A stretch of 62,984 nt of DNA, filler included, from Folioceros fuciformis (lineage: Eukaryota), in NCBI GenBank assembly GCA_049999805.1. It is 9 parts of 9 records of this genome, joined end to end, with 100 filler letters (N's around TTAATTAATTAA, not from the genome) between each part and the next. Parts side by side here need not be neighbours in the genome. Positions count along the whole stretch, not along the records: positions 1 to 23,852 come from JBNGIO010002838.1; 8 more parts are not named here. One strand, given 5' to 3'. Under the pieces are notes generated by a model. The model saw only the letters and a program-made list of their open reading frames with translations. It searched no databases and had not been told where the DNA came from. Positions 90-57,617 of the stretch are shown piece by piece; the first letter of the stretch is position 1; the number at the start of each line of letters is the position of its first letter. The translations under genes and the position numbers were made by a program.

Positions 90-1550
90 GCTTGCTCCAA
101 CTCTAGACCCATAGGTCCTAGCTGAAAAACTGGCGTACTGTTGAGGGGGGATCCGGGAAGTCTAATGGGTGCTTCCACCATAACAAAAAACCCCCGCTTG
201 TCTGGGGGCCGCTTGAGATATCACTTCTCTTAGGCTAGCCAACAAATCCCTGCGTATAGTGTCTAGGATGACTCGTGCACAGGTTGCAAAGATTCCGAAC
301 TGCATTTGGAGATGGAAGGGAGATTTCCATGACTTTTGTTCCCAGTCCCAAATGCCCCGCAGGAACACTATGCCCCTCAGTCCTGCATTCCGAAAGTGTT
401 GGGACCTTCTGATCCCGCGTGCTTGCTCCTGTGACCACATGTGGGGTAGACCCTGCAGAGGTAATGCCAGAGCTTCTGAACGTTTATCCGGGGGTTGCCA
501 GCGGGCCATAGCCAGAGCCTTGCGGAAACTACTCCAAATGGAGTGCCATAGCGGCGACCCTTCCCCTTGAGCGAACCGGATGCGATCCGCAAGAACATGC
601 ACTATGCTCTATTGACCTCTCGTGCTAAGTTGGGCGCTATGGAGTCTAGCAGTGAAGAAGTCTTCCATGGGAAGTCCAGAGGACCCATAGCTTTGAGCAC
701 CCCTTGCACGTGAAGAGCCTGGGTCTTGAGGACCGGGTCAACTAAGGCTAGGCCACCCTAAAGTTTGGGTTGAGTCAAGAGATCCCAAGCTACTTTTTGG
801 CAGTTACCTTCCCCCTCCACCAGCCTACTCCATAAGCACTATCTGATGGTTTGTTTCAGCTTGGCAATGTCCACTCAAGACGGGGACCAAACAAATTGGA
901 AATACCACAGCATTGCTGTCAGGATGTAGTTTATGGCAACTACCCTGGCCGCCGTGGAGAGCTGTAATGTTTGGAGGGCTTGAGCTTTCCTGATGAACCT
1001 TGAAACAATATACTTCTCAATTTCCCCATCCTCCTCCCCCTCCTGTAGAGGGATATCAAGGTATTTGTGGAACTGGTTTCCACAGATGGGCTCGATATGG
1101 ATCACTAGGACGGGGATTCTATCACCTGTGTTTAGGCATATCATCTTTGGTTTGGCCCAGTTAACTTCACACCCCGATAATACGCCAAACTCCTCAACGA
1201 CCTGCATCATGGCTTGCAACAATCTTTCATTAGCCCTGGAAAACAGCATGGTGTCGTCAGCCAAACAAGAGATCCTGCATTCTTTGCCCAGTGGATCTCT
1301 TATGCCTTCTACTTCAGGTGCGAGTTGCTTCTCCATATGAGTAAATTAGTAAGGATGGAGAAAATAGGTGGGGCCAGAGGGCATCCCTGCCTCACAGACC
1401 GGGTGATGGGGAAGCGCTCTGAGATTTCACCATTCACCGCCACTTTGGCACCACCATCTTTGGTCAGAATAACCACCCAGTGGCATGGCGGCATGGCCAG
1501 CAAAGCTCGGTGAAGGTCTTCCACGCTGAGAGGGCTTTCCAGCTCATGAC
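90..1550 (-). mobile_element. L1-clade LINE ORF2 fragment (RT), frameshifted
   Basis: AKVAVNGEISERFPITRSVRQGCPLAP, LADDTML, GCEVNWAK, KYLDIPL, ARVVAINYILTAMLWY motifs; multiple stops. Confidence 0.9.
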
Positions 1551-2579
1551 TTTTTTTTCTTTCTTTTTTTCGCGAAGAAAAAGATTCTGATTAATTAATG
1601 GAAGATGTCTTCCACTTACAAGACATAGGAAGGACCCCCTGCTTACGTATGTACAATGCATGAGCACCATGAGAGAGGGGAAGGCCGACCTTGTGTCCAA
1701 AAACTCAAGACATGACACTCAAAGAGCACACCCCTAGGCTATGGTAGTAGTAGGCTGCTAAGACCACTCAGACTTAAACCTCAAATTCGACCAAAGACCA
1801 TAAGGGCTCACCTTCCCCATGGACACGTGTGATTCCACTGCTCATCATTCCCAGGATCAAGAAAGCCCACCTTCCTCCATTCTTTCCGCTTGAACTGTTT
1901 CTGATGGGACTGCCACAAAGCTTCTGCTGCAATCAGTAAGTGTTCCCATATGCACCATAATAAAGCCTTAGTTGAGGCTGACTCTTGTCCTCCATAGACC
2001 ACAGAGGACCAGTTAACCCAAAGAGAAAAAAGGCACGAAGACCACAGCAACCCCCACCATTGTGTCTGAAGTAGAGGCTTGCTCGAGACTGCATCCAACC
2101 CAAATAAGGCTGATTGTTTCTTGATCCTGAGATTAGTACCAGGAAAAATCTTTTGCAACCAGCTACCCACCTCCCTCCAAATTTCTTGAGTAAAGCTGCA
2201 ATGAAAGAACATGTGCTGACTTCTGTTTGGGGCACCAGAGGTGCAAAGTTGACACAGCTCCTCTCCCGTTGCAACTAACAACCCATCCCAGCGATCTGCA
2301 TTAGGTAAACATGCTTGAAAAAAGCACCAAACCGTAGTCCTCACCTTGGGAGGGATTCCTGCAGACTTCCATAGTAGCTTGATAGCTTCCCTTTGTCGCC
2401 GTATAGATAGTTGCAACCTGGGAGCCATTGGTTGTCGTTGATTGTTTTTTTGTGCTCATACTATCCAGAGGAATATGTCCGCCGTTGGGAAGTTGAAGAA
2501 AGATCTAAGGCAAGCCTCCTTGCACCCTAGACGCCTGGGCCATTTGTAGAGGTCTGGTCTTTAGGCCAATGCCAAGGCC
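1551..2579 (-). mobile_element. 3' end of a second L1 LINE (zf-RVT) with A-rich tail, interrupting the first LINE
   Basis: IPPKVRTTVW...CQLC...HMFFHCSFTQEIW zinc-binding motif (1808-2428); T-rich tract at 1551-1570 on + abuts the RT of LINE 1. Confidence 0.85.
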
Positions 2580-2616
2580 AAAGCACCAAACCGTAGTCCT
2601 CACCTTGGGAGGGATT

Positions 2617-4861
2617 GCTTGCTAAACCCATCCACACATGAGATCCTGATAAGCAGGGATGTGGTATTTGATGAGTTAGCCTCCTGGTATAGCAACTCAG
2701 TTGCACTACCCTATGACGAACCCATAAGGGAGAGTACTGTTAAGAGTACTCCAGCAAAGGGTGAGGATGTGACCAATGGTGGATCACCAACGGTGAATCC
2801 ATGGTCTGGAAGACTGCGGAATGGTAAACCCAAGACCACTGACCCGGACATGTCAGTGAGGGGGAGAGTAGAAAGCAGCAAAACTGGAAACGAGGGATAT
2901 GAATCCTCAAGTAGTGAGAGCATTGACACTGAGTTTGGCATTCCGTCTGTGGAAATGCCAGGTGCTAAGGAGCAACAATATGCAAGGCAGGTTCAAAATG
3001 AACCAAGACCAAGGAGATCTGAGAGGGTTAGGAAACCCATTGACAGGTACACCTATATAAGCTACAATGCGCAACATTATGCGTATATGACAAGGGTCGT
3101 AGCTTGTAAGGAGCCAACCAAGTTTGCGGAGGCAGTGACAGATGATAAGTGGAGTCAAGCCATGGATGAAGAATACTCAGCATTAGTTGAGAACGGAACG
3201 TGGGATTTGGTTCAATTGCCTCATGGCAAGGTTCCTATTGGTTCTAAGTGGGTGTACAAGCTGAAGTTCAAGTCAGATGGAACGCTGGAGCGTTACAAGG
3301 CCAGGTTGGTTGCAAAGGGATATGCACAACAGTATGGTCTTGATTATGAGGAAACCTTTAGTCCAGTAGCCAAGATGACAACTGTAAGGACAGTCATAGC
3401 ATTAGCAGTAGCTAAAGGATGGAAGGTATGGCAAATGGATGTCAAGAATGCCTTCTTGAATGGTGAGTTGCAAGAGGAAGTGTACGTGGAACAGCCTGAA
3501 GGCTATGTTCATCCTAAGTTTCCAACATACGTATGCAAACTGAGGAAGGCATTGTATGGACTCAAACAGGCACCTAGAGCATGGAATGCTCGTATCACAA
3601 GCTATTTGAAGGAGCGAGGGTTTGTGATTGGAGACGCAGATCACAGTCTGTTTGTAAAACAGACTAAGGTAGGACAAGTGTGTCTTGTCGTTTATGTTGA
3701 CGACTTGATCATCACAGGAGATGATGCATATGGTATTGCAGATGTCAAGGCGAATCTGTAAAAAGAGTTCAAGGTGAAGGATCTTGGTGAACTTAGATAC
3801 TTCTTAGGAATTGAGGTGGTGTCTACACCTCAAGGAATCTGGCTATTCCAAAAACAATATGCTAAGGATATGTTGCAGAAGTATGGCATGGCAGATTGCA
3901 AAGCGATGGATACACCATTGGAGCAGAACGTCAAGCTGCAAATGGATGTAGGAGCTGAGCTGGAAAATGTGACTATGTATCGACAGATGGTCGGAAGTTT
4001 GATCTACTTGACTATCACACGTCCTGACTTAAGTTATGCAGTGGGACTGATTAGTCAATTCATGCAGAACCCAAGGAAACCGCACTTGGATGCAGTTAGA
4101 AGAATCATGAGATATGTGAAAGGAAGTACTGAGTTTGGATTGTTCTATGAGCATAGAAAGCATCTTGAACTGATAGGATATACAGATGCTGATTGGGCTG
4201 GTTGTGCGTATGACAGAAGATCAACTAGTGGATATGCATTCAGTCTGGGAAGTAGTATGATCAGCTGGCAAAGTAAGAAACAACCGACAGTTGCTTTGTC
4301 AAGCACAGAAGCAGAGTATCGAGGAGCTGCAATGGCAGCCTGTGAAGCAGCTTGGTTGCAGAAGTTGCTACATGATCTTGGAAATATAGTGAACAGCAAG
4401 GTTACAATCTACTGTGACAACATGAGTAGCATGAGGTTGGCTACCAATCCTGTGTTTCATGCTCGTTCGAAGCACATAGAAGTACATTATCATTTCATCA
4501 GGGAAGCGGTATTATCTGAGAAGATAGATCTTCGGCACGTGAAGACCGAAGACCAGGCAGCAGATATCTTTACTAAGTCGCTAGGTAGAGATAAGTTCTT
4601 ACACTTTCATGAACTACTTGGAGTGTTACAAATAGTCTTAGCTTGAGGGGGAGTGTTAGAAATCAAGCTCTAACTGAATTGTTATTAAGAGCATAAAACA
4701 CTTAGGATAGTGTAGATTATCCCATATTGAACTCGTAGTTATCTATCACCTAAGTGTTATCAGGATATATCAGGATATACTAGGATATTGCACCCTCGAG
4801 ACTAAGGCTTACCTTATTGAGGGTTGCCCCGGAGTCCTTCTAAGCCTGTGGTACTATTTCA
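2617..4861 (+). mobile_element. Ty1/copia element A, 3' half (RT, RNase H, PPT, 3' LTR 4654-4861)
   Basis: YKARLVAKGY, QMDVKNAFLNG, LYGLKQAPRAW, YVDDLI, YTDADWAG, KHIEVHYHFIRE; one stop at 3759-3761; PPT GAGGGGGAG then TGTTAG...CTATTTCA. Confidence 0.95.
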
Positions 4862-7800
4862 ATAGGCGCGAGATCCGAAGACTTGGAGGTGTAGAAGGCT
4901 GGGCTTCTTGTTCCAGAATACCTCAAAAGGAGTCTTGGTTGGGACAGTACTGGTAATGATGCAATTAAGGATGTAGGTCACCGCCACTATGGCCTCAGCC
5001 CAATAGCCCTGTGGTAAGTTTGCTCATAAGAGCATGCTTCTCGTCATTGAAAGCAGGGTTTGGTTCTTGTGTTCTGACACACTATTCTGTTGTGGTGTGT
5101 AGGGCACTGTGAACTGGCGCAGGATTCCTGAAGCCTGCAAGAGGTCATTAAAGGATGAGTTAACAAATTCAGTGCCGTTATCGGTTCTAAGGGTCTTCAG
5201 GAGCTGTCCTAACTGCCTCTAGGCTATGGTAAGCCATTCCTTGAAGCAGGCATAGGTGTCACTCTTCAGCTGCATGGGCTAGGTCCACGTGTAGCGGCTG
5301 TAGTCATCATTGACTGTTAGGAAGTAACAAGCACCTCCAAGGGAGGGCTCATGGACTTTGCCTGAGATGTCTGCGTGGACTAACTCAAAGACTCGGGTGG
5401 CCCTCTGTGCAGGTGAATCAGGGAATGGTGACTCCTTCTGCTTGGCAAGGATGCATGATTCACACACACGTAACTGCTTGAAGCATTTGGGGAGGGGTTC
5501 TCGATGGCACTCTAGGGATGACATGTTAATCAGCTTCGACCTATTGACGTGTCCTAGGCGGGCATGCCACAACAAGGCCTGCTATGCCTGACTTAGGTTA
5601 GGACCTGTGGTTGAGTGGACAGCCTTTGTGTGTGGGTCTGAATTGTGACAGGTGATGTTGAGCCTGTATAGGTTGCTCTCAGGCAGTCCCTCAAAGGCAC
5701 ATGTGTGGGGAGATGACTTGCTTGTAGAAGCACCAGTGCTCACAGTCTGCGTGCATGTAGAAGGCCCGCTGTCCCATGAGCTGGCTCATGGACATGAGGT
5801 TCTTGGCCATGCCTGGGACGTAAATGACATCTGTCAGGGTTAGTTGAGTGCCATCATGGAGGCTGAAGACACAGGAACCCTTGCCCTCAATGCGCAGACT
5901 TGTCTTGCTCTACTCATCTGCAAGAAATACCTGACCTCCTTTTTGTGTTAGGTCAAGGGTACTAAAGAGGTCCCTCTTCTTGCAGATATGTGTCGTCGCC
6001 CCGGAGTCGAGGTACCAGCAGCTGTCATCACTGAGAGTGCTGGACAAGCAGACTGTTAGTATCTTCACAGGAGCCTTCAAGTCTCCTGGTTTGTTATGCC
6101 TCACGGCCACGTTTGCACTGGTTTTTGCTGCTTTGAGGGCTCGCCGGCCCTTCTTTTCCGGCATTCTCTGGCCCAGTGGCCGGGAAGGCCACACCAATTG
6201 CAGTTGCTAGGTCTCTTGATGGGGCTTGAAGGTTCCTCCCTCTGTCCCTACATTGCTGTGCTTCTAGGTCTAGTTCTTCCCTTGCGGAAGTTTGTGGCTA
6301 ATACCTTCTCTCCCTTGTTCCTGAAGGTGGATGAGAAGGCGAGACTCTGCTCTTCCTGGAACAGCGCACCAATCACCTCCTCCAAGGTGATGGTCGCTAT
6401 CTGGCCAGGGGCAGCCACGGCAGCGCGTATGGGGCCGTTTTGGCTCGTAACAAAGGTCTGGTAGGAGGCAGGAAGAGTGCTCAGCAGTTGGGTGATAGCG
6501 TCCACCTCTGACATCTTCTCTCTTGTCATCGCAGTGAGTTGGGCACGTAGGTGCCGGAACTTGTTGACATGTGAGACCACCTTTTCTCCCTCTTTCATTT
6601 TAAGGGAGAAGAACTCCTGCCTGACTGTGCATAGCGTCATCATGTGCTGGATTTTGTATGTCTTTTCTAATTGGTCCCATATGCCATGTGCAGATGTGAG
6701 GTACTCTACCTTTGGGACCAAGTCTGCATCTAGCCCACAAATAATTAGGGCAACAGCAATGGCATTATGTTGTTCCCACCTGGCAATTTCATTGGCTGTG
6801 GGGGTAGGACTGGTATTGGGTCAGGTTTGGGGTAGGAACCGTCAACAATGGTCCAAACTCCCTAGGCCAGCAGGGTGGCCTTCATCCGGACTCTCCACAC
6901 AGTGTAGCCATACCCCTTAAACCTATCCTTCTCCTTGAGTTCTGAGGTGAAGGTAGGTGTGTTTGACGATGCTGCCATTGCTGATTGTTGGGTTGGGGTA
7001 TGTAGAGAGAGGTGATGGAAACCACTGATAAGGGAGTTGAGTTGTGCAAGGGTGACCATGTACGCCTACACCAACCAAGGGAGCTGTGGCTACGGTGGTA
7101 CGAGGGGGTAGGTGCGCATGTGACTCCTGCTATTGTGCTCCCGTTCCCTTATTAGCTGATGCTGGGACGTAGGTGGCGGGGCCTAGCTGAGCACAGAGTT
7201 CGGATGCCATCGGGGTGGTGGCACTGTTGAGTTATCGAGCTCTATATGAGCTAAACTCATGTGGTGTTAGTTATCCCAGTTGGGTTCATACTAGACTAGT
7301 TCTAGTTATTAGTGAACTTAGGATAGTGTAGATTATCCCATATTGAACCTGGAAGTTGTGTAGCCCTAAATGTACTACTTAAATGGAGACCTCGGACCTC
7401 CATAGTAAGACAGTGGTGATGTGTATTGTTTTCATGGTTGTGATCACCAATACCACCCTCTCTTCTCTCCTCTCCTCTCCTACACTTGCACGTAGATTGG
7501 AGTCGATCCTATTGACAGGCACCTCAGTCCTGCGCCCAGTTGAAGGCCTTGCCACTGATGACCGTGGCATGGGTACACCTAGGGTGATGAGGGAGCTAAC
7601 ACAGCTTGTTAGGCCCAGATGGGGAGATAATGTTCTTATTACTATTATTTTCGAAAGGGGGCGGACCGAAGGGGTGAGCCCTAGGTTTGAGTCCAGGTGG
7701 GCTGTTACTAACCGTCATGTCCCAGCAGCTTGAAGAGGTTCACTACGTGGCCCAATGGGGAGGCGACGAGGTAGATCTCGGCGAGGGGCATAGAGCGCAT

Positions 7801-8728: not shown

Positions 8729-10269
8729 CGTACCCAGCTACTCAAGAGCTCAAGTTTCCAACCCCTAATGGGAAGGAGAAAGCAGCGAGGGTCCCTAAGG
8801 GGCCCAACTTCATGGTGAGGAGCTGAAACGATACCAAGCCTTGTTTTCCAAATTTCATGATGTCTTCATTACAGAGCACGCGGAGATGCCAGCCACCAAC
8901 CTGGGGGAGTTTCGCATCAACATCCCTGCTGACACAAAACCCAAAATGCAAAAGTTACGAAGGTTGTCCCCCAAACACATGCAGGAGGTGAAGGAAGAGG
9001 TAGAGCGGCTCTTAGAAGCTGGTTGCATCGAGCCTGTAGAAGAGCCAGAGTGGGTGTCCCCCATTGTGATTTCAATGAAGAAGAATGGGAAGATTTGGAT
9101 ATGTGTGGACTTTCGAAAACTGAACAAGGCAACAGTGAAGGACAAGTATCCTCTGCCTTTCACTGATGAGATCTTGGACGAGGTGGCAGGACATGAAATG
9201 TACTCCTTTTACGATGGTTACAGTGGGTTCTACCAAGTCGCGATTGCCAAGGAAGATCAACTCAAGACTGCGTTTGTTATCCCATGGGGAGTATTCATGT
9301 ATAAAGTGATGCCCTTTGGCCTCTGTAATGCCCCATCAATCTTTCAGAGGTTTATGGTTGAAGCACTGCAGACCACCATAGGGAAGTGTCTCAGAGTTTT
9401 CCTTGACGACTTTGCTGTCTACGGGAAACGAGCTGAACATCTTACCTACCTAGAGCTGGTCTTCAGTTGCCTTCAAAAAGCAAGACTGGGTCTTAACCCG
9501 CAGAAGTGTGTGTTTGGCGTTAAGGGTGGTGAACTCTTAGGCTTTATGGTCGACGGCACTGGGGTCAAGGCTGATCCTAAGAAGATTGAAAAGATAACGA
9601 GGAGACCTCCACCAGCTTCACAAACAAAAGCAAGGTCCTTCGTCCAAGCAGCCCGTTATTATCAACGGCTAGTTCCGTCCTTCATTGACGCAGCAGCCCC
9701 TCTCTACAACCTGTTCCGCAAAACCCAAGGCTGGGATTGGGATGATGCCGCTAATAAGGCTTTTGTTGGGCTTAAGGCTTTGATGGCCTCATACCAGGTA
9801 ATGAGGAACCCTCAGTGGGATTCTACGTTTTTTGTAAGTTTGGAGGTCACAGGAAACTCGTTGGAGTACAACCTTTTCCAGAAGAATGCTATGTCTAACC
9901 TTTTCCATCCTGTGTACTTTGGAGAATGCTTGCTGACTAATTGTGAGTCAAGGTACAGTGATGTAGAAAAAACTACAGCAGCTATGGTGGCAGCAACCCG
10001 GAAATACCACCACTACCTAACAGGTAACAAATTTGTATTCTTGGTTAGGCTACATCCCATTTGATACCTCATGAACTTGCCAAACCTCACTGGCCGATTT
10101 GCTAGATGGATTTGCGCCTTGACCGGATATGAGTTTGAAGTAAAGGTTAAAGGATTGCAATTCATGGAGATGGAAACCGGGCTCTGTGGTTAGAAGTCGG
10201 AAGCAGTGGAAAGCACTAAACAAGAGGAACAGATGGTACCATCAGAAGCAATAAGATGTGAAGCACCTA

Positions 10270-13200
10270 TGTAGAGGAAAAAAACTTTCGACACTCCCAT
10301 TTTGAGTGACAGAATGAGCAGGCTGCAATTTTTTGTGTGAAGGAACGAGCAAATCGGCTTAGTATGTGAATAAGATGGGGTATTCATACCCAAAAATGGC
10401 CTTGGTCTTTGGGTGTTTGGGATACCGAAGACCATGATCTAGAAGTAGTGAGTGAGGGTGCCCTTGGGCCTTGGTGGTTCGGGGGCATTTAGGAGATTAT
10501 ATATATCTCCCCCTTTTGGAAATAAGGAATAGAAATGAGTAGGGAAGGGGGTTAGCTAGTTGTGAATTTACGAAAAAGGATGGGTTGAGGTGATTGGGCG
10601 ACGGTGGCCAGTGGGGCAACCGTTGCGAAAAGGACGACTGGTGGTAGTCTAACTGGCAGTAGTGAGAGAAGAAAATGGCTAGTATAAAAACCCTAAAGGG
10701 AAGTCTGGAAGGGAATTAAGTTAGTCTTCGAAACGTAAAGGGCAGTAACCCGGGAGCGTGAAGGCGGCTGGAAGGGAAGCAGATGCTGAGGCAACAGGAC
10801 GGGCCGAGGCAAGCAGCGAGTGCTCAGCGAGAGAGAGAAGGGACCGCAGAAGCCGGAGCACGAGGAGGAGATTGGCGGGATGAGGTCACGTCCTGAACTG
10901 CTGCCTCGAGTACCAGAGCAGGAGGGGGAACCTCCTGTCCCCCGGATCAACCTACTCTTGTGGCCCAACATGGAGCACTGGAGGGTCAGAGCAGGAGGGT
11001 TGGTGGATGAATTGGGTCTGGGTTTCATGACCCATAAGTGGAACCACGCGGCGCCACAGTTGGTCAGGGAGTGCGCCCTAAGGTTGAGGGAACCTGTCCG
11101 TGAGAAAGGGATCAGAGGTAGACCGCAGGGGTGGAATCTGGAGCTAGTAAGGAGGGTGTATGGTCGTGACCAGCGAGAAGAGGGAGGATTGGTGCTGGAG
11201 TCCCTAAGGAAACGAGGGGGGGGGGTACGGGAGACGCTGAAGGACTGCTCAAACCAAGCACGAAGAAGGAGGCTAACGGATGGTTGGTTCGCGATATGGC
11301 GAGCCCGCAGCTGATGGGTCTGGCCAGGTGGTTTCTTAGCTTTCTCCAGGTTTGCAAACAGGATTATCTGTCTGACCAGATGCTCCTGTTTGTGCATGAG
11401 GTAGTGAAGGGGACCAGGATTGATTGGGGAAAAATTCTGTATGCGAGGATGGACGAGGAGAGGCAGAATTTGGCCCTGTCCTCTCCTCAGCCCTCGATGA
11501 TTTCCCCATTTCTAGTGCATATTTATAGTTATCCTAACCTGGTGTCGGAACTGGAGGTGTTGGCTTCACTGCACATGTGGAGGCCAATCAGGGATGTAAA
11601 ATGGAAGCATGTTGAGCCAGTGAAGGCTGACTCTAGCAGTTGGGAGTTGGGAAGTGGGGACAGCTTGGAGGGGAAGGTCCCTGTCAGGCCTAAGAAGAAG
11701 ACAGCGGCTCAGGGGAAGACCCTTGCCTAGAGGAGATGGGTCCGCGGGCATAGCACGAGAGGAGGGAGTAGGCCGGAGACATCGGACACAGCCCTGGAGC
11801 AAACCGAAGGTAAGACAGAGGAGCAGGCTGTACAAGAATAGGAGCTCGCTAATCAGGGGGTTATGGATCAAGAACTGGAAGAGCAGGGGTAGGATGAAGC
11901 AAGGCTGGAGGGGTCTCAAGAGTAGACGTTAGCCGCCGAGTTAATTCCTCCCAGGCATGAGAGCAAATTAGGGCATGATTCGGCGCAAGGAGCTTTTTCC
12001 GAATGGGAGGAAATCTTCAGGAGCATTCCTCAGAAGGATAGGCTGCAGGTGGGAAACCTGGAGAAGCTGAGGGAGTTTCCGGGCAAGGAGATTACGGCAA
12101 GGGGGATGACGGTTGGAAAGGCGCAGGAGGTGGATCTGCCAGGGCTGACTGCCAAAATGGTACAGGCCCAAGCAGATCTCCTGGACCAGGCTGCTAGGGC
12201 ACTGACCTAGCTGAGTGTGCAGGCAGAACGGGAAGCCGAGGCCTGAGGGAAAGAAGCAGAGGCATACCGGAAGGAGGCTGAAGCCCGGAGGCTACTGGCA
12301 GAATCGGAGACGGCGTGGCAGCAGCTGGAGGAGAGACAATGAGTCCTGGATAAAGAGAGGGCATAGGCTGAGGAAGAGGTACGCTAGGCGAAGGCTGAGG
12401 TCCAAGCACTAAGGGAGCAACAGGGGATCCTACTAGCTCAGGTGAGGGAGGCCCATGAGACTAACCTGGAGATACAGTAGGAGATGGCCAAGGCGCAAGA
12501 GCTGGAAATAGCAGCAGTGGAACAAGCCCAGAAGCTGGCTGACAGGTACAAGCGGGAGCGAGACGAAGCCAGAGAGAGAGTGAAGGGGAAGGGTAATGTT
12601 GGGCGCCCAAGTCAAACGGCGACCCCGGTAGCTGAAGAGGCTACCGATAGTCGAGCAGGGGAACCGGTAATCGAGCGGACTACCGGTAGCCGAGTAGCCG
12701 CCAGGGCTACCGGTAGCCCGGCTGAGCCCAGAGTAGCCGAGGGACCAGCCCTGGGAACCAAGGAAGAAACAGCGAAGGCGCCTGAGCTTAGGCGCTCCAG
12801 GAGATTGACCCGCACCAAAAGGACAGAGCCAGAGGAAGCAACAGCTGGACGGGTGAAGGACCTTCAGGTACCCTAGAAAGATGGGGAACAGACAGCCCAC
12901 GGTAGTCCAAGGGAGGAAGGGGTAAGCACCTCCTTTATGACAGAAGGTCAGGTTGTGCTGCAGTATGAGGAGGAGGCTTCCTATGTGCCAGGTCTTTATG
13001 TGGAAGGGGCCAGAGTTCTTAAACTGTTTCTACATGTACGTATGGGCACAGGAGGGCCGCGGGGCTACGGCCTGCATATGAGGACCCGCAAGGGACTCTA
13101 CCGATACAGCTGGTGGGTGACAAGCCTGCCCCATTGCTACGCGGAGGCAGTTCTGGAAGAGTTGACGGAAGAAGAGGCCCAACGATGGGTAGAACGAGAG

Positions 13201-14934
13201 CCTGTTGCCATCCTCAGTAACCAGAGGAGGAGGGGAAACAGTAGTTCTTAGCGGTGGGTCCCACCTGTGCCGCCGCCGGACAGGTCCAACAGCAGTAGTG
13301 ACGTAGAGATCCTGTGGGAAGATCTGCCTGATCAGTGGAGGGGTAGGAGAGGAAGAGGGGGACAGTGAGAGGGGACGCGTGCAGACCGGGGGGAAGGCGC
13401 CAGCGGCGTGGAGAGTGGCAATAGTAATTGCAGGCTAGGATAGCGTTTTTTTTTGGAATGCTTTTACTTGGAGTGGAGGCGCTTGGAATCTAAGAGCGCA
13501 GATTGACCCCTGACGGACTTTATAGCGGAAAGACCGCCACCACCGTGTATAAGAGGCCAGCTTGAGGCCTGGGAAATTAACAAAAATCAGCCCAATTACC
13601 CAACCTTGTAGGAGTCTAGCGATAGCCGTTGCCGGACAGGAGGTCCAGGCAAGCACACGCCCGTAGCAATCTGGGGGTGTGGGTGCAGGTGGTGGATGCT
13701 CCGTGATTGAGCCCGAGGACGAATCGGGAGGTGGAACCTCGCCGAGTGGGAGACGAGCTCCTCAACTATCCTCGGGGCGATCACGTGGGGTGGTGAAGAC
13801 GTCGGAGCCGAATCCGCGGGTTTGGAGTGGAAGCCGGTATCCCTTCCCTTAGCCCCGGTGTCTCAGCATTCCTTAACTCCATAGGAGAAGGCCCAGAGGG
13901 GCAGGACCGAGTGTGGAGTCGAGAAAATGTGAACAGGTGAGGAAGTGAGATTAAGAGGGATAGTGAGAGTGAATGTGTGACGTTGAATGGTCGTCAGGAC
14001 AGGCCTGCGCGACTGGGGGTGCGTATGTGAGAAGTGGTGGTAGAAGTACGAGAAGGCTGCATGGTGGAAGCCGCTGAAACCCGTGTGAGGGAGGAGTGGA
14101 CTGGAGACTATAATCGAAAAGGGACCTTTGGAGGCGTCGTGGATGGGGCGCTGCGAACCGAGGACGAGTGCCCGGAGTTTGAGGAAAAGAGGAACCATAA
14201 AAGTGGAGCCGCCGAGTTGGAGTGATTAAGCGCCGACAAAACCCTGGTGCGTGTGTAGCTGAAAGACGATTGTGTGTAAACCGGCCTGGGTTTGGGCTGA
14301 GGTCGCGTGGATAGATTGAGGACTGTAGTGTCCAAGGCCCCTTCAAAACTTCCTGAGTGCCAATAGGTGCACGACGAACGCTGGTGTGTTTTAATCGAGG
14401 TACTGGAGAACTGGCGGGTATGGGCGGAGGTCTGTGAGTTCGTAGGTGAGCGCGACTAGGAGTAAGTTGCTGGCGATTTTGGGAGGCAAAGGATTGGTAA
14501 GTAGGTATTAGAGGGTAACCCAGGTTAGTGGAGAGAGGAGGAGGCTTAGAGATAGATAGAGAGAGAAAGTGGGATCCACTGGGGTAGCCGGATGGGTGAC
14601 CATTACCCGGAGAGGAAAGGGAGTTGTCTGGAGGGAAACGGGGGTAGTCCTGAGCAGAAGTAGTTGTAGGGGCAACGGAGTGGTTGAGGCGGTTGAAGAA
14701 GTGGCCGGAGCTAGGGTCGTCAGGAAGTCAGGAAGAGTGGGAGCGCCCGGGTGTGACTTGGGTAGTTGGGGGGTCCTGAGGAGATAGGTACCCTTAAGGT
14801 AGTAATTGATTTTGAGAGGAAACCTGTGTAGTTGGACACAAATCATTCCCTTGGGATCGAATCCCAGTGCTATAACGGCAAAGAGGGTTTGTGTGGACCT
14901 CGCAGCACCCCCAGGTGCAATATTTTCCCCCGCA
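10270..14934. mobile_element. 4665-bp insertion with TG...CA ends and 5-bp TSD; probable giant solo LTR carrying an accessory ORF
   Basis: TGTAGAGGAAAA...TTTTCCCCCGCA imperfect terminal inverted repeat; ACCTA at 10265-10269 and 14935-14939; removal restores ...RCEAP-T-RQRRATAKEE... in host pol. Confidence 0.88.
10783..13370 (+). pseudogene. Decayed accessory ORF inside the insertion (helical domain, coiled coil, low-complexity linker, small C-terminal domain)
   Basis: Chain of + strand ORFs 10820-11314, 11284-11730, 12484-12876, 12937-13251 joined by frameshifts/stops; IDWGKILY...ISPFLVHIY segment; E/R/A/Q-rich heptads. Confidence 0.65.
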
Positions 14935-17475
14935 ACCTACAAGGCAACGAAGAGCAACAGCCAAGGAGGAAGACAAGTCCCCATTTTGGCCACCACCCTG
15001 GCTGAAAAATGAAGGTGAATTCCCCACCAGTGAGACATGGAAGATGTGGACTGATGGAGCAGTTTCGCAAGGTAGGGGAGGCGTAGGAATCTTCTTGCTA
15101 GGTCCTATTGGGAAACCAGCTCGGAAGATTGGCAAGTGTGTCCCTATAAGTACTAATAACGAGGCCGAATACCAGGCGATGGAGCATGTGTTGGAGGAAG
15201 CCTTAGGGCTAGGAGTGAAATACCTTAGTGCCTTCTCGGACAGCCAATTATTGGTAAAGCAACTGTTGGGCAAGTATGAGGTTAGAGCAAAGAATCTGGT
15301 GGGAATGCATAGCAAGATCCTAGAGATGATCCCAAGGTTTGGAGGTTTTGCTCTTACTCATGTTTCTAGGAACATGAATGTAGTAGCAGATGAATTGGCA
15401 AAGAAGGCATTACGGGATGATCTTGGACCGAATGTTCCAACATCAGATAAGATGATTACTCTTGCCATTCTTGATTACTGTGTTGAAAAACCTGAAGCCT
15501 GTGCTAAGGGGATGTGGCATATTCAAGTGGATACTGCCTCATCAATAACCTGGGGTGCTGGTTTTGCATCCCTGATACTAGGGCCAGATGATAAGGAAGT
15601 AGCCTTGGTATCTAAGTCAGTCAACAGGTCTCACCCAAAGTTGCTGGTGATGCAGGCTATCAAGGAAGGACTGGCAGAAGCAATAAGATGTGGAGCACTC
15701 CATGTTACCATGTTTTCCAACAACCTTCTTGTGATAAGGGCCCTTCGGGCTGGATTGAAGTCCTATGTTGGAAGGCAGAAGCTTGAAGAAGATTTAGCAG
15801 CCGTTGAAGGTACAGCTGCTCTCTTAAGGTGTGTAAACTATATACACACTAATACCCTAGTCTTTCCGGTCAAACCAGAGAGGGATGTGAAAAGCTATGC
15901 TGAGGCAACAGTCTTTAACATCCGATGTTTTGAAGGAGAAGGGGAGCTGACCACCCTAGTTGTTCAAGTCGAGGACCCGGCTACATTATATGGACAGATC
16001 ACAGATTTCATCACTAGTGCGAAGCTACCTGAGGAACCACCTGGTTATGATAAGAAGATAGCTAAGTGGTCCAAGGATTATGCAGTGGTGGAAGGGAGGC
16101 TGTTTAAGACTGGGCCAAATACAATACTTAGGATGTGTGTGTGGGGCCAACAGATTCCTCGCATTCTGTTTGAGATGCATGATTTAGTCTGTGGAGGCCA
16201 TTTTGATGCAGCCGCAACAACAAAGAAGATTCTGCACGCTGGTTACTACTGGCCCAACATGTTCAAAGATGCTCGTGCCTATTGTCAACACTGTTACAGT
16301 TGCCAAAGGTATGCCACAGTTTCCTTAAAACAAGGTTTGCTCAATCCAATCTTCCCAACCGGTTCGTTTGTCAAGTGGGGGTTGGACTGCATTGGACCCT
16401 TGGCACCTGTCTCCCTTCACGGGAACAAGTATATCATAACAGCTACTGTTTATGCCACGAAGTGAATTGAAGCTTAGGCTTTACCATCATTATCAAGAGA
16501 GCTCATCGGACATTTCCTATACTCGAATGTGATCAGTAGGTTTGGATGCACAGCAGAGATAGTAAGTGACCAAGGATGGGAGTTTGTAAACAACATGATG
16601 GAAGGGGTGACCCGAGCCAACTCAGTCAAGCACAGGTTAGCTACACCTTACCACCCAATCACTAACAGGCAAGCAGAAAGCACCAACAAGGTAGCTATCA
16701 AGGTGTTGGCTAAGCTATGTGAGGCGGAACCCCAAAGATGGGATGCCCACCTTCCTGGGGCACTATGGGCTATCAGGACCCGAACCAAGGCTATTTCGGG
16801 TTTATCCCCGTTTGCTCCGGTATATGGAGCACCGGCCAGAGTACCTTCACAAGTGGAGACAGCCACTGTTGGATTTGGGATCATTGCTGCAGGGGTTCAA
16901 CCTGAGCAGCGGGCACTTGAGCTGAATGAGCTAGAGGAGGTGAGAAAGGTGGCCTTCCAAAGGGAAGAACACAGTAAGATGAGATAGAAAGTGGTCCTGG
17001 ATGAAGGGAGGAAGATGTATACATTAGAACCTGGAGATTGGGTCCTGAAGCTTAACGTCTGGCGTTACATGAAGAAGGAGCTAGGGTATAAACTGAAGCC
17101 ACGATGGGAAGGACCCTTCTTACTACAGGAGGTCTTCACTAAGGGTGCTACCAAGATACTCTTACCACCAGATTTCACGGCTCAGGAGGAGGTAGTGAGT
17201 CTTAGCTACCTGAAGAAGTTCTTTGCCTGAGTCAAGTAGGTAGATGCTCCCGTCTAACCAGATAAGGCATTTAACCTTACTCTTTGAGATTATATGCAAG
17301 CGAGGGAGGAAAAAAGGTTATGAGGTATGTGACTAGAGGGAGGGGGAGTTCATCTAACCTTGAGGGTGTCTAAGTTATTATGAGTGGACAAGTTAGGTAG
17401 GATCGTGTGGTTGTGAGCGTTTGGTATTTTTAGGATAGGGCTACTATTTAGGTTGTTGGTGAGAGCGCACTGAAG

Positions 17476-18859: not shown

Positions 18860-19214
18860 CCGCCCTTTTACAGGTATCTTCAGAGGCGTACCCCGGCTAT
18901 AACCCAGCTAAACTGCCCTTTTACAGGTATCTTCAGAGGCGTACCCCGACTATACCCCGGCTAACACCGCCCTTTCACAGGTATTTTCAGAGGCGTACCC
19001 CGGCTATACCCTGGCTAACACCGCCCTTTTACAGGTATCTTTAGAGGTGTACCTCGGCTAACACCTCCCTTTTACAGGTATCTTTAGAGGCGTACCCCGG
19101 CTATACCCCGGCTAACACCGCCCTTTTACAGGTATCTTCAGAGGCGTACCCCGGCTATAGCCCGGCTAACACCGCCCTCTTACAAGTATCTTCAGAGGCG
19201 TACCCCGGCTAACA
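18860..19214. repeat. Minisatellite, ~54-bp unit, about 7 copies
   Basis: CCGCCCTTTTACAGGTATCTTCAGAGGCGTACCCCGGCTATACCCCGGCTAACA repeated head to tail. Confidence 0.95.
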
Positions 19215-23192: not shown

Positions 23193-23852
23193 TGTTAGGA
23201 ATCGATCAAAAGTCAAGTGAGGTTCGCGAAGAGCCAACATGATATGTGGGTATTAGAGGGAGTCAAAATAGGCATGCATGACAAGTTAGATAAATGGTCG
23301 TATGATAATGATTAGATCAATTATACCCATAAACTGACAAGGAGAGAGACCAAGGTTAGCAACAAGAAAGGGAGATGAAGGTTAGCAACAATAAGGTCCT
23401 CAACAAGAGTTGTACCAATCTTTATCCACAATCCAATCTCTATTAGTGAAATCATAACATCCTAAGAGACATAATTGACACGTGGAAGAAAAGGGGTAGT
23501 GGAGTCATAACATAGTAAGAGAGAGAACAACAATGCTGAGTTTTGTCCACAATCCAATCTCTGTTAGGGGAGTCATAACATCCCAAGAGACAGAACTCAC
23601 ATGAGGAAGTTGAAGAAGGGGGAACACTTGCTACACGAGGAAGGGCAACATTGGTAGAGGAAGAAGAAGCAACAGTGGTAGAGGAAGAAGAAGGAAAGAC
23701 ACTAATAGAATCATTGCAACTTAGGTCACAAACAAAGCTCTTGATAGAATCATTGCAACTTAGGCCACAAACAAAGCTCTTGATAGAATCATTGNNNNNN
23801 NNNNAATCATTGCAACTTAGGCCACAAACAAAGCTCTTGATAGAATCATTGC
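23193..23852. mobile_element. Probable LTR start running into a 39-bp tandem array and the contig end
   Basis: TGTTAGGAA start, internal duplication, 39-bp repeats shared with 1-55. Confidence 0.55.
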
Positions 23853-23952
23853 NNNNNNNNNNNNNNNNNNNNNNNNNNNNNNNNNNNNNNNNNNNNTTAA
23901 TTAATTAANNNNNNNNNNNNNNNNNNNNNNNNNNNNNNNNNNNNNNNNNNNN
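23853..23952. other. Artificial contig linker (also 26942-27041, 31572-31671, 45522-45621, 48499-48598, 54370-54469, 60160-60259, 61385-61484)
   Basis: Identical N44-TTAATTAATTAA-N44 blocks of 100 bp with stops in all six frames. Confidence 0.99.
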
Positions 23953-26600
23953 GGCCCTCGGAGTTAGTGTCCTCAAGAGGATCACCATCGTCTTGTGAGA
24001 AATGTGAAGGGGAGTAAGGCTGGTGGCGACCCGTGTCGGGTCGTGAGTCGGCCACAGCTCCCTTTGAGGCTGGCCGCGTGAGTTCCAGGATCGTAACACT
24101 GCGGTCCAGGATAATGTTGTGATCTTCAGGATCAACCAATTTGTAAGCTTTCACATTGTTGCTATATCCAACCAGCAAGAGCTTTTGCGACCTGTCCTCC
24201 AACTTTCGGCGCTTGGTCTTTGGTATGTAGGCATAAGCTGTAAAACCAAAGACTTGAAGGTGGAGGATGCTAGGTTTTTGATTCTAGAAAACCTCATACG
24301 GGGTACGCCTGGGGACAGTGCCAGTGATGACTCAATTAAGGATGTAGGTGGCAGTGACAATGGCTTCTGCCCAGAAGCCCTGAGGAAGGCTAGCCCACAG
24401 CAACATGCTTCAGCTCATTGAGAGCAGGGTTTGATTTTTGCGCTCTGAAACCCCATTTTGTTGTGGGGTATAGGGTACGCTAAGCCGCCTCTAAATACCT
24501 CGCTCCCACAAGAAGTCAGCAAAGGTGTTATTCACAAATTCTGTTCCGTTGTCACTTCTCAGGATTTTCAGCAAGTGACCTGTCTATCTCTCGGCAACTA
24601 GGAGCCAATCTCGGAAGTAGGTGAACGTGTCACTCTTGAGGTGCATAGGATATGTCCATGAGTACCTACTAAAATCATCCGTAAGGGTGAGGTAGTAGTG
24701 TGCTCCCCCTAGTGACAGTTCGTGGATCTTTCCGGAGATGTCCGCATGAACCAATTCCAAGGTGGTGGTTACCTTGTGAGCGTGCTTAGAGAAGGGGAGT
24801 TCTTTCTGCTTCGCCAACACACAAGATTCGCCCACAAGGAGGTGCCGAAAACACTTAGGTAGGGGCTCCATATATAGGTTTTGTAACACCATGGATGTAA
24901 GCTTGTTTTTGTTAATGTGTCCCAACCTCGCGTGCCATAGAGATGCCAGGCTGTCAGAGGATGACCGCGGCGGTTTGACTGTGAAGGCAAACGGCTTGCT
25001 CCTGTCGGCAAATGAGAGCCTATACATGTCGTCTTGAGGCACGGCGGTGAAGAGGCACAAGTCAGGATTTGTGGTCCTAAAAAAACAACATGACCCCTTG
25101 AAGCGAGCATCTCAAGATTGCCTTGCTTTAGCAACTGAGTCATGGAGACCAGGTTCTTGCCCGTCTATGGGACGAGGAGCACATGCTCCAAGGTAAGCAC
25201 CAAACCATCCCGAAGCGGAAATTCGCAAGTGCCTTGTCTCATGATAGGCAAACTAGATCTACTTTGTTCATCACCGAGTAACACCCTTTCTCTAAGACGA
25301 CGGGTATCCAGCTTGGTGAATAGAGTACGATCGTTGCATATGTGGGCGGTGGCTCCACTATCCAGTTACCATCTTGAATCCTGGTGCAACTGGGTGTTGA
25401 GGCAAACCGTAAGTATCTTTATGGTTTTTGTTTCCACAATGCTAGCTTTCCCATGAATTGCAACACTGGATTTCCCATGAACTGCAACACTGGCTTTCCC
25501 ATGAACTGCAACACTGGATTTCCCATGAACTGCAACACTGGCTTTCCCATGAACTGCAACACTGGCTTCCTGTCTCGGGCCAGCCTCCTATGGCTTTCCG
25601 GCCTTCTTGCAGCAGTCCCGTGCCCAGTGGCTAGCAGCTCCGCACCAATTGCAGTTTCCGGCCCGGCGAGGAGGAGCAGAGGTTGATTCACCTTCATGGG
25701 TGAAGTTTGCCCTGCCCTTCTGAGTCTTCCCGGGCTTGAAACGGGTGGACAGTGCCTTGTCTACTTTGGGCTTGGACCCTCCTGTAGAGTTAAGACGACT
25801 CTACTCCTCCTGATACAGAGCGCCTACGATGTCCTCCACTATCAAGGTGGGAGTTGTGCCTGACTTACAGTGGGTAGATACCAACATCAAGCTGGTGACA
25901 AAGTTTTGGTACGACGCTGGTAAGCTCATCAACAGTTATGCAGGGGCATCGATCTTCGACATGGTGGAGCCAAGGGAGGCAAGCTGCCCTCGCAACTATC
26001 TGAACTTTGAGGTATGAGCAGAGATCGTATCTGTTTCCTTCATCCTTAAGGAGTTGAATTCTTGCTTTACACTATACAAGGTTAGAACGTTGTTAACATT
26101 GTACATGTTCAATAGCTGGTCCCAAATTGCAGGGGCCTCCGTGAGGAACTCCACGCTGGGCACCAGACTCAAATCAAGTCCGCTGATGAGGAGAGCAATT
26201 GTGATCCCGTTCAAATAGTCCCATCTCTCAATAACAGCGACTAGCGGGGGTGGAGTGGCAGAAGGGTTGGGCCTCGGAAGGGTGCCATCGACGATCTTCC
26301 AAATGCCTTGACCTATTAAGATGGACTTCATGCGTACATGCCACACCGGGAAGTGCTAGCCGTTGAACCGATCTTTTTCCTTCATATGATCGGTGTAGAC
26401 AGGGCTTGCACTTGTGAAGGTGGACGAAGAGCTGCTCGCCATAGTTGTTGCGGAGTCTAACGACAGTGAGTTAAATTGTTGTATCAGGTGGTCCACAAAG
26501 GAATTGTAGGTTGTGGTCATAAACTCAGGTAGAGGGGTGTACATCACACTGGTTCTTCCTTCAATGTTGTCGGACAAGAGTTACAAGGGAAACACAATTA
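23953..26600 (-). mobile_element. Ty1/copia element C (gag, zinc knuckle, protease, integrase), decayed; related to element B
   Basis: KEKDRFNG, WHVRMKSILIGQGIW, LDSGATAHIC, LWHARLGH, LVHADISG, LLLVGYSNNVKAYKL. Confidence 0.92.
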
Positions 26601-27041
26601 TTCAAGGACAGAGTGGCGTTAGTACCCTCCTGGTTCAAGAAAGCAACCCCAAGGTGCTCAGGATCACTCAATGTCCAACTAGTCAAGAACTTGCAAGCTA
26701 TCCACCTCCAATTTTGCTATACGACAAACGCAAAAAATTGGGTCTACCAAACACTAAGTTATGTGCTCGAGCTGATCCCACAAGGTTGAGGCATGATCCG
26801 TGGAGGTCTGTGAACCTCCAAAGTTTGGGGTAGTAGTTTGTTTTGGTTGAAAAAGGGTTAATAGTGGTATGGTTTGGTTTTCTTTTTCAACTTATTTTCC
26901 CTAATTTTCCTTGATTTTCTGGTCATTTTTCCTATTTTTCTNNNNNNNNNNNNNNNNNNNNNNNNNNNNNNNNNNNNNNNNNNNNTTAATTAATTAANNN
27001 NNNNNNNNNNNNNNNNNNNNNNNNNNNNNNNNNNNNNNNNN

Positions 27042-30792: not shown

Positions 30793-31789
30793 CTATTTTG
30801 CTTTCGATCGGTCAAGCTTGCCATAAACACGGACATACTTCCGACAAGTGACAACAAACAATAGTGGCCTCATGTAACTTGTATGGATAGCCTGTCTCTG
30901 AAATTTTTATGTTATGTCCTATGTGGGTCATGTTTCACATGTTTTGCTTATTGTGCCTGGACTTCGCTATCATGCTTGCTGCCTACATGCTGTTGGTGGA
31001 ACGAATGGAGTACGCTTGTTGGGAGAATCCGCCCCAAGACCAGAACATGTGATGTTTGATGAATGCAACTTGCAATGGACATGTGTTGTGTTGCTCAAAT
31101 CAAAGATGACAAGTTTGGGCCCGAACACGGTAGGTGGTTCAAACGACATACATGAAGAAACCAGATGACCTGCAAACATGGTGGATGGAAGGTTGACAAT
31201 CGGAGAGGTGGATGCGCAGTTTCGGTCGGACAGGTAGACGCAAAATGGTTTGTACGTGACCCTGAAGTGCAACGAGCAAGACGGGTCGGTTGACAAAATG
31301 ACAATCGACAGCCCCGGCACAATTACCGTCAGGCAATCAGAGCGTGACGGCAGAGGGGGCTTTGGATGCGTTTGCTATGCAAATTGATACACCAAATCGA
31401 AGGAAACAAACATTTGTCCACAGCTTCTTATACACACTGTACATGGGATTGGGCAAAAATGTTACAGAAAGCTTCATGAACGTGGGTAGAAGGCCTCCTG
31501 TTTCCTCTCGAGGGACTCCACGTGTTTGGCACCCACGCCAAACGTTTTTGACAGAACATCCACAGGAATGCNNNNNNNNNNNNNNNNNNNNNNNNNNNNN
31601 NNNNNNNNNNNNNNNTTAATTAATTAANNNNNNNNNNNNNNNNNNNNNNNNNNNNNNNNNNNNNNNNNNNNATGTTCTATAAGTGCGATTGCTCCAGCAT
31701 GAGTTACGACATGAGACAATGCAATTGCAAAACCATATTGCTATTGCTAAGCTCCTATCAAGTTCTACTTGCAGTGATAAAGTTGGTAG

Positions 31790-45281: not shown

Positions 45282-45521
45282 TGTAGAGGAAAAAAACTAT
45301 CCAGACTCCCATTTTGAAGAACAGAATGAACAAGTTGTGTTTTTTTTTGTGAAGATACGAATGAATCGGCTTAGTATGGAAATAATACTGGGGCATTTAT
45401 ACCCAAAGGGCTCCTTGGCCTTGGTGATTTGATGGGATTGAGTGATGGGACTAATGGGAAGTGTGGGCGAGGGTGTCCTTGGTCCTTGGGAGTGATGGGG
45501 CCACTCAGGTGTCTATATATG
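45282..45521. mobile_element. Terminus of a second member of the 10270-14934 family, cut by the contig end
   Basis: TGTAGAGGAAAAAAACT...ACTCCCATTTTGA...ACAGAATGA...AATCGGCTTAGTATG...GAGGGTG...TATATAT aligns by eye with 10270-10506. Confidence 0.85.
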
Positions 45522-45621
45522 NNNNNNNNNNNNNNNNNNNNNNNNNNNNNNNNNNNNNNNNNNNNTTAATTAATTAANNNNNNNNNNNNNNNNNNNNNNN
45601 NNNNNNNNNNNNNNNNNNNNN

Positions 45622-52794: not shown

Positions 52795-53415
52795 CGAGCA
52801 CGAGGCCTTGCCCCTCGCAACATTAGCTTCCTACGCGATGGCTGAGGTCTTGCCCCTCGCAACATTAGCTTCCTACATACATGATGGCTGAGGCCTTGCC
52901 CCTCGCAACATTAGCTTCCTACGCGATGGCTGAGGCCTTGCCCCTCGCAACATTAGCTTCCTACATACATGATGGCTGAGGCCTTGCCCCTCGCAACATT
53001 AGGAGGAGCAACATTAGCTTCCTACATACATGATGGCTGAGGCCTTCCCCCTCGCAACATTAGCTTCTCGCACGATGGCTTCCCGCGCAATGGTTGAGGC
53101 CTTGCCCCTCAAGACATTAGCTTCCCGCGCAACGGTTGAGGCCTTGCCCCTCACAACATTAACTTCCCACGCGATGGTGAGGCCTTGCCCCTCCCGACAT
53201 TAGCTTTCCACGCGATGGTTGAGGCCTTGCCCCTCCCGACATTAGCTTCCCGCACAATGGTTGAGGCCTTGCCCCTCGCTACATTAGCTTCCCGCACAAC
53301 GGTTGAGGCCTTGCCCCTCGCGACATTAGCTTCCCTTGCGATGGTGAGGCCTTGCCCCTCGCAACGTTAGCTTCCCATGCGATGGTTAAGGCCTTGCCCC
53401 TCGCAACATTAGCTT
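52795..53415. repeat. ~39-bp minisatellite, about 15 copies
   Basis: GAGGCCTTGCCCCTCGCAACATTAGCTTCCC...GATGGTT units head to tail. Confidence 0.95.
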
Positions 53416-54024
53416 TCTTAGGTCTGAACTCGACTTAGCTTGAAATTGATGTCGAACCTGAAGCTAGCTCTAAATCTTGTTTCCTATAGCTACTTCGTAA
53501 CATTAGCTTCTTGTGTGATGGTTAAGGCCTTACCCCTTACAAAATTAGTTGCCTTAGCTTTGAACTCAAGTCAACATGAAATTAATGTCAAACTTGAAGC
53601 TAGCCTTAAATCTTGTTCCCTATCAACCACTTCGAATAAGGCTCGGCCATGTTGCTATGGCTTTATTCTAAGGGCTAAATCTTCGGAATAGGTGCCACAA
53701 CAATTGTATGTAGAGTGTGAAGAAAAAGTTCTAACACTCTCTCCTCTATCCTCTTTAGTATGACATACAGGCTCGAGTAATGCATCATTTAGCTTTTGAA
53801 TTTTAGGCGAGCTATGCAACTCAATACTTAAATATATTTAATCATATGTACAAATATTAACATAATATTTATTATTTCAACTTATCCATAGTGCTCCTAT
53901 TATCTTGGAAAGCTAAATGTAAAAAATCAATCAGATGGCAAGGTGTAGCCCCACTAATACTTTTCTTACATGAATGTATTTGCAACTGTGCAACATATGT
54001 TGTGACCATCATACATGCACCCTA

Positions 54025-57500: not shown

Positions 57501-57617
57501 TCCGCCCATGTGAACAGCAGTACTCCTCAAGGTCAGGCCCAGGTCCAGACTCAGGCCCAGGCGCAGGCACAGGCCCAGTCGCAGGCGCAGGCACAGGCCC
57601 AGGCGCAGGCCCAGGCG

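Follow-up and report, generated by a model that had tools for sequence, protein, structure and literature searches.

A repeated 4.7-kb insertion with LTR-type ends and a decayed reading frame in a Ty3/gypsy pol gene of Folioceros fuciformis: a possible gene-carrying solo LTR

The sag gene of mouse mammary tumor virus (MMTV) and the nef gene of human immunodeficiency virus (HIV) are short accessory genes of animal retroviruses, which lie in or overlap the U3 region of the long terminal repeat (LTR) and are expressed from spliced 3' mRNAs. Retrosat2 of the Tat lineage combines LTRs of more than 3 kb with an orphan extra open reading frame (ORF) within the same element (PMC3485330). The ends of GingerRoot elements read TA..TA or, in 5 of 77, TG..CA (PMC6839031). 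We analysed a stretch of 62,984 nucleotides from Folioceros fuciformis (assembly GCA_049999805.1), referred to as the window throughout, and in it an insertion at positions 10270-14934, which an earlier note had read as a giant gene-carrying solo LTR. The inserted DNA is a single, complete copy of a mobile element that occurs many times over. Reading it as a solo LTR is the most economical option and the likeliest one, although unproven and in our estimate right with about an even chance.

The insertion and its immediate surroundings comprise the following features.

8799-10269, + strand: left part of the decayed host Ty3/gypsy pol, with RVT_1 and RT_RNaseH
10265-10269, no strand: left target-site duplication ACCTA, from the sequence and an empty-site contig
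10270-14934, + strand: inserted element TG...CA, 4665 bp
10270-10281, + strand: 5' tip TGTAGAGGAAAA, matching the 3' tip as an inverted repeat (9 of 12 positions), within the first 16 bases that are identical in a second copy
14935-14939, no strand: right target-site duplication ACCTA, from the sequence and empty-site contigs
14940-16987, + strand: right part of the host Ty3/gypsy pol, with RVT_3 (additional RNase H), Integrase_H2C2 and rve

The insertion of 4665 bp has TG at its start and CA at its end. At the left junction GAAGCACCTA is followed by TGTAGAGGAAAAAAAC, which begins at 10270, and at the right junction AATATTTTCCCCCGCA, which ends at 14934, is followed by ACCTACAAGG. The two tips, TGTAGAGGAAAA at 10270 and TTTTCCCCCGCA up to 14934, form an inverted repeat that matches at 9 of 12 positions. 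No inverted similarity was found past the tips: the local score was 8, which 456 of 500 shuffles attained as well, their mean being 9.3. ACCTA stands on both sides as an exact 5-bp duplication. A hAT-type re-registration of the ends, with a TAGAG start and an 8-bp duplication, was tried and rejected because the flanks mismatch.

The boundaries were examined with the contigs of four public runs (X1 to X4), which were aligned to positions 9300-15900 of the window. X1, X2 and X3 stem from one sample of one study, possibly the assembly's own source, and thus serve as a boundary check rather than as an independent replication. One X1 contig of 573 letters represents the empty site: it spans 10053-10264 and goes on with 14935-15295, so that its joint from 10264 to 14935 skips exactly 4670 letters. 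X2 held one contig with the identical joint. The X1 contig differs from the window in 53 of its 573 letters (21 on the left and 32 on the right side), which indicates that it belongs to a sister copy of the host element. The imperfect inverted repeats at TG...CA ends and the exact 5-bp ACCTA duplication that the earlier note had described are therefore present, and the duplication is backed by contigs from two runs that are without the 4670 bases.

The two flanks of the insertion together form a single pol gene, decayed and belonging to a Tat-type Ty3/gypsy element. RVT_1 and RT_RNaseH were found in 8799-10064, RVT_3 and Integrase_H2C2 in 14876-16465 and rve in 16478-16987. This domain order corresponds to the 'retroviral' Tat layout of PMC13468544, which is reported there in hornworts, ferns, some lycophytes and seed plants. 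The left pol frame, ...GRFARWICALTGYEFEVKV...IRCEAP, reaches 10268 and the right pol frame begins with TRQRRATAKEED at 14939. Because 4670 is 2 modulo 3, left and right frames form one frame, a continuity that was established by arithmetic and without building the joined sequence. On this count the claim of a precise insertion into a gypsy pol gene, whose frame is restored on removal, holds for a host frame that carries its own stops at 10062 and 10191. A weak second RVT_3-like stretch (15476-15895, E 0.071, below the cut-off) follows the host RVT_3; a genuine domain there would give the host pol the 'three-domain retroviral' Tat layout, which is tied to hornworts in PMC13468544. A tandem-repeat array was seen by self-comparison at 18860-19214, downstream of the host integrase.

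The abundance of the insertion in the runs sets it apart from its host. Records that aligned with at least 80% likeness numbered 1683 in X1, 1911 in X2 and 1473 in X3, and most of them fell on the insertion. Summed depth in X1 was 42-87 on the flanks and 91-2327 inside the insertion, and the bin 14825-15045, which contains the last 110 bases of the insertion, had a depth of 3754.6 in X1 and 5063.2 in X2. Since depth does not equal copy number, contig counts were used as evidence of repetition. At position 13104 a C stood in place of the window's A in 18 distinct contigs of X1 and 28 of X2; at position 12465 the letter differed in 18, 25 and 10 contigs of X1, X2 and X3, respectively. The matches of 12 X1 contigs stop at 14931, where the consensus goes on with ACA and then becomes diverse (agreement 0.45). 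The common stop of these contigs implies a 3' boundary common to many copies, and the 3' tip of the family is probably ...CCCCCACA.

X3 differed from the other runs in its substitutions. C>T changes occurred at 353 places, versus 120 in X1 and 114 in X2, and many were found in all X3 contigs. X3 thus resembles a bisulfite-type library prepared from the same sample, and as such it could reveal the methylation state of the element.

The 5' end of the element occurs a second time in the window.

45282-45520, + strand: second partial copy, the element's first 240 bases, starting at the same TGTAGAGGAAAAAAAC and ending at the contig end and linker

The second copy matched the insertion at 73% along 241 nt (E 5e-29), and at 81% when only the first 125 nt were compared. 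It lies inside a copia pol gene, whose gag_pre-integrase domain is split at position 37 of the 67 in the profile. A search for further termini within the window returned these two known 5' ends alone, and a second 3' end was not found beyond chance.

If the insertion were a complete retrotransposon, its LTRs should be visible as a direct repeat. Self-comparison of the insertion yielded no internal direct repeat, the longest repeat family being 22 nt and the best self-match 51 nt at 70.6% (E 0.18), and the end-to-end direct similarity of the insertion scored 20 as compared with 16.9 ± 2.5 for shuffles. Thus the insertion is not a two-LTR element. Six-frame Pfam scans with X at stops did not detect gag, reverse transcriptase (RT), RNase H, integrase or transposase (rve/DDE), and neither tRNA genes nor Rfam families were found in the insertion. 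On both points, the missing direct repeat and the missing gag, RT, integrase and transposase, the earlier note agrees with these searches. An internally deleted or otherwise non-autonomous two-LTR element, i.e. a large retrotransposon derivative (LARD) or a terminal-repeat retrotransposon in miniature (TRIM), would fit the size, the ends and the duplication. It is practically excluded: the searches found a direct repeat neither end to end nor inside, and they would have missed LTRs only if these were below about 15 bp in length. A candidate primer binding site, TGGTGGTAGTC at 10641, was rejected: no CA precedes it, and the 371-bp 5' LTR that it implies has no 3' partner.

The LTR-integrase signature invoked by the earlier note is real and consists of the TG..CA ends, the 5-bp duplication and a short terminal inverted repeat alone. 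A single unit with TG..CA ends, a 5-bp duplication, a short tip repeat and no internal repeat gives the textbook picture of a solo LTR. The TG..CA ends together with the 5-bp duplication are explained by an enzyme of the retroviral-integrase kind, which inserted the element into an older Tat-type Ty3/gypsy element, within its pol gene. In the proposed further course of events, recombination between two very long LTRs would have ejected the internal part and left the solo LTR. A gene could have come to lie within the LTR by a shift of the plus-strand priming site, the polypurine tract, to a position upstream of a 3' accessory gene, which would afterwards be copied within U3 into both LTRs.

The putative gene and the parts of the element around it are arranged as follows.

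10270-10506, + strand: 5' module, common to the second copy, with three CCTTGG (10400, 10462 and 10469), ending with TATATATAT (10498-10506)
10683-10689, + strand: TATAAAA, a candidate promoter for the frame, followed 94 nt downstream by an ATG (10783)
10790-11225, + strand: upstream frame part, first in-frame ATG at 10880, shifting frame at a G10 run (11216-11225)
11170-13251, + strand: main frame part, 694 codons with 11 internal stops (9 TAG, 2 TGA); the N-terminal part is helix-rich, the long middle is rich in E/A/R/K/Q, and a C-terminal part follows
13252-14821, + strand: non-coding 3' part, no family match in any frame, with the lowest depth of the element at 14162-14824
14822-14934, + strand: 3' terminal module of 113 bases, whose abundance in the runs exceeds that of the rest of the element roughly tenfold or more, with loose contig ends at 14821 and 14931

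An open frame at 10790-11314 overlaps the main frame at 11170-13251, and the change of frame falls within the run of ten G. In other copies this run is 5 letters shorter (1 contig in X1, 6 in X2 and 1 in X3), which amounts to the offset between the two frame parts. The whole frame comprises about 800 codons at about 10880-13251 and is interrupted in this copy by its 11 stops and at least one frameshift. We consider it quite probable that the family has a real gene of this size, which is dead in the copy at hand. The coding region of about 2.6 kb that had been proposed thus stands as a + strand frame of 2.4-2.5 kb that looks like a decayed family gene, and fails as an intact one: stops break it in 11170-13251 and the frame changes at 11216-11225.

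Is the frame a gene, or is it a by-product of the purine-rich and G-rich composition of a non-coding LTR? This question is separate from the identity of the element. A purine-rich + strand should be rich in stops, yet the 694 codons contained 12 stops in the chosen frame versus 32 and 42 in the other two + strand frames. Across 2000 composition-matched first-order Markov simulations, stops in the most open of the three frames averaged 27.4 ± 3.8, and the count never fell to 12 or below. The composition showed a three-base periodicity with G at 0.41, 0.23 and 0.43 of the three codon positions, and all 11 internal stops are TAG or TGA. X1 depth peaked at 909, 1099, 1323 and 2327 on 10847-11067, 11289-11509, 12394-12614 and 12836-13056, respectively, all within the frame, as would be expected if coding parts were conserved among diverged copies or subfamilies. 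A 1869-letter contig of X4, a run that is RNA by guess alone, was collinear with two frame parts 1 kb apart; the six aligned pieces of X4 were all less than 90% alike and none derived from this copy. On the other hand, one antisense frame of this stretch has only 10 stops and so is just as open, a single-sequence fold of the frame product had a pLDDT (predicted local distance difference test) of 42.7 and was unusable, and searches returned neither a relative nor a family. On balance a mere by-product of composition appears improbable.

The searches for relatives covered several collections. For residues 20-186 and 570-693 of the read-through product no homologous proteins were found among 311 and 110 scored candidates, respectively, which had lengths of 381-1215 only. 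A phmmer search with a 186-aa piece against 1.84 billion representatives gave 0 matches, as did three comparisons of the frame product with PDB sequences. Pfam, searched with 10 of 24 frames of at least 80 aa, with the read-through product and in six frames, returned chance rows below the cut-off only (MlaD, E 0.12; PetG, 0.0027). In the protein atlas the best score was 0.90 with 148 shared features; one such cluster was 70% DUF1985 and lay below the kinship mark, and the C-terminal part matched nothing. By tblastn the frame was not similar to the window outside of the insertion. Among metagenome contigs 277 protein-pattern matches were obtained, none of which was confirmed, and a degenerate 36-letter pattern of the 5' end gave 0 matches. 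The N-terminal part gave an impression of likeness to plant 'transposon protein' domains, which Pfam did not bear out. The product would consist of a helix-rich N-terminal part, a charged, coiled-coil-like middle and a C-terminal part; the helices are taken from the poor model, and the coiled-coil look of the middle was judged by composition alone. A protein of this kind is presumably not an enzyme, but one that associates with itself and has an accessory or structural role in the element.

Outside of the frame we searched for regulatory and terminal motifs. TATA-like motifs stand in sense orientation at 10498 and 10683, upstream of the frame, and no polyadenylation signal of the type AATAAA or ATTAAA is present in the insertion. 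The second copy has four CCTTGG at places that match those of the 5' module, compared with about 0.5 per kb for each motif in the window on average. CCTTGG is present once in the 3' module as well, in direct orientation relative to the 5' module. The 3' module has a T-arm look owing to GGGATCGAATCCC and was therefore tried as a tRNA-like module or a tRNA-derived short interspersed nuclear element, which was rejected with 0 genes reported by ARAGORN and 0 Rfam matches at E up to 1.

The uneven abundance along the insertion suggests that it might be a composite. Here an ordinary solo LTR or small element, made up of the 5' module and the 113-bp 3' module, would have been split when a different element, about 4 kb long and containing the frame, later inserted into it; ACCTA would then be a duplication made by the outer element alone, and no LTR would carry the gene. 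The conserved frame parts and the 3' module are far above the linking non-coding parts (900-3750 versus 91-193 in X1, the latter at 10405-10846 and 13941-14824). Moreover, nesting is the rule in this window, and 2 contigs of X1 and 3 of X2 enter the 3' module at 14821 from other upstream sequence (agreement 0.93); the module at 14822-14934 may be shared with a larger family. Against a composite, we found no boundary inside the insertion that had ends and a duplication to itself. The linking parts are repeated too, being covered by other copies in 9 (X1) and 12 (X2) contigs at 10737 and in 5 and 4 contigs at 14476, though short contigs cannot show continuity. The second copy also stays alike up to 10506, the point where its contig ends. 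We regard a nested composite as having little likelihood.

A further possibility is a DNA-based element, moved by an integrase-related transposase and distantly akin to Ginger and GingerRoot, which could be either non-autonomous or a complete single-gene unit. The conserved 5' module (about 125-240 bp) and 3' module (about 113 bp) would then be the recognition sites of the enzyme. GingerRoot elements occur in bryophytes and lycophytes, have LTR-like ends, measure 3.9-12.9 kb and often contain pieces of foreign genes (PMC6839031), and the window likewise comes from a non-seed land plant. The terminal modules outnumber the parts that adjoin them, and an internal-deletion joint from 11844 to 12727 was found among the run contigs; terminal abundance with internal deletions is a pattern common in DNA transposon families. 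A second joint in X3, from 10783 to 13268, corresponds to a variant that is without nearly exactly the frame and was rejected as too weak to use: it was seen in one contig with a short side of 41 letters and 14 foreign letters in between, in the run that looks bisulfite-treated. The diverse flanks beyond the 3' end would suit such an element as well. Yet the duplication is 5 bp long instead of the 6 bp of GingerRoot and Ginger2 or the 4 bp of Ginger1 (PMC6839031), and the terminal inverted repeat is limited to 9 of 12 positions at the tips instead of 100-150 bp. The CCTTGG of the 5' module recurs in the 3' module in direct and not in inverted orientation. An integrase or DDE domain was absent from all six frames, as it would be from a non-autonomous member. 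We consider a DNA-based element unlikely, albeit somewhat less so than a composite.

Several observations weigh against the solo LTR itself. Within the window the unit was not seen with a paired copy, a primer binding site, a polypurine tract or a gag-pol partner, its only other copy being the partial one at 45282-45520. The sequences past the 3' end are diverse in the 12 X1 contigs with no shared primer binding site or leader evident, which speaks weakly against it; diverse 3' flanks are given equally by solo LTRs and by 3' LTRs. The two ends are unequal, the 3' bin of X1 having a depth of 3754.6 and the 5' bin 344.2, which is unexpected for the ends of one LTR, short of a marked difference in their conservation. 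With an LTR promoter at the TATA motifs of the 5' region, R and U5 together would exceed 4 kb, and we know of no precedent for such an LTR. Conversely, a frame located in U3 would need the genomic promoter to lie in 13252-14800, a region with only weak TATA-like motifs. The frame has no detectable relatives, so that its reality is a matter of statistics and depth peaks only, and open frames come cheap in this composition: the open antisense frame is what would be expected for a pyrimidine-rich strand. Taken together we still favor the solo LTR over each of the other readings at the strength given above.

Two more far-reaching interpretations would make the element a novel one. In the first, a 4.7-kb LTR took up a whole accessory gene of about 800 codons, e.g. 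by the shift of the plus-strand priming site outlined above. In the second, the element is a complete single-gene unit of an undescribed kind with LTR-type ends and a 5-bp duplication, and without an LTR pair, a long inverted repeat or a recognisable integrase of its own. That one or the other of the two is correct appears doubtful to us, if marginally less so than the DNA-based element.

The remainder of the window is heterogeneous. Eight 100-base spacers of the type N44-TTAATTAATTAA-N44, with stops in all six frames, are located at 23853-23952, 26942-27041, 31572-31671, 45522-45621, 48499-48598, 54370-54469, 60160-60259 and 61385-61484. The window thus consists of nine joined small contigs, and sequences that meet at a spacer do not adjoin each other in the genome. 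In addition, a gap of 10 N is present at 23795-23804. In the first contig, 875-6820 is a pile of dead elements with a LINE-type (long interspersed nuclear element) RT and zf-RVT at 875-2455 on the - strand, a copia RT at 2565-4646 on the + strand and a copia gag at 6248-6820 on the - strand. The segments 4875-5390 and 24246-24761 are on different contigs, aligned over 516 nt at 68.6% and possibly belong to the same old repeat or LTR family. Further tandem-repeat arrays were detected by self-comparison at 52802-53634 and 57534-57854. A pentatricopeptide-repeat (PPR) frame of 689 aa at 45625-47694 is open from the start of its contig; its best named relatives have 35-45% identity and come from lycophytes, ferns, mosses and a liverwort, while one contig protein reached 60%. 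These relatives point to a non-seed land plant and do not single out a hornwort.

This copy is dead, and the value of the finding lies in the family rather than in the locus. If the insertion is a true LTR, it would be among the longest known and, to our knowledge, the first plant LTR with a conserved protein-coding gene, as a literature search brought up no such case. The gene would be doubled in each element and every solo LTR would be a promoter-plus-gene cassette scattered through the genome, which would change the view of how accessory genes of retrotransposons are kept and spread. If it is a DNA element of the integrase type, one that makes a 5-bp duplication and has next to no inverted repeat, it would widen a small group of elements known from bryophytes and lycophytes. 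A nested composite would be ordinary.

How does the insertion compare with the known systems? Provided that the unit is an LTR, it would resemble MMTV sag and HIV nef by analogy, in that a coding region would be doubled at both ends of the element and kept in solo LTRs. With GingerRoot and Ginger, which carry foreign coding pieces and insert among Gypsy-rich DNA, it shares LTR-like termini, a short duplication and a size of several kb (PMC6839031). It differs from the elements described there by its duplication of 5 bp in place of 6 or 4 bp, by its imperfect inverted repeat of 12 bp in place of 100-150 bp, and by the lack of a detectable counterpart of their integrase-like DDE gene. Retrosat2, RIRE3, RIRE8 and FRetro3 (PMC3485330) are similar with respect to LTR-type ends, a duplication, an LTR length above 3 kb (if the insertion is an LTR) and an extra ORF that is without relatives beyond its group and has no known role, and Retrosat2 also with respect to short inverted repeats, of 10 bp, at the tips of its LTRs. 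This likeness to the ORF0 of the Tat group is one of description. In contrast to the insertion, in which the frame lies between the ends of a unit without repeats, the ORF0 of the Retrosat2 group is internal and upstream of gag-pol (PMC3485330).

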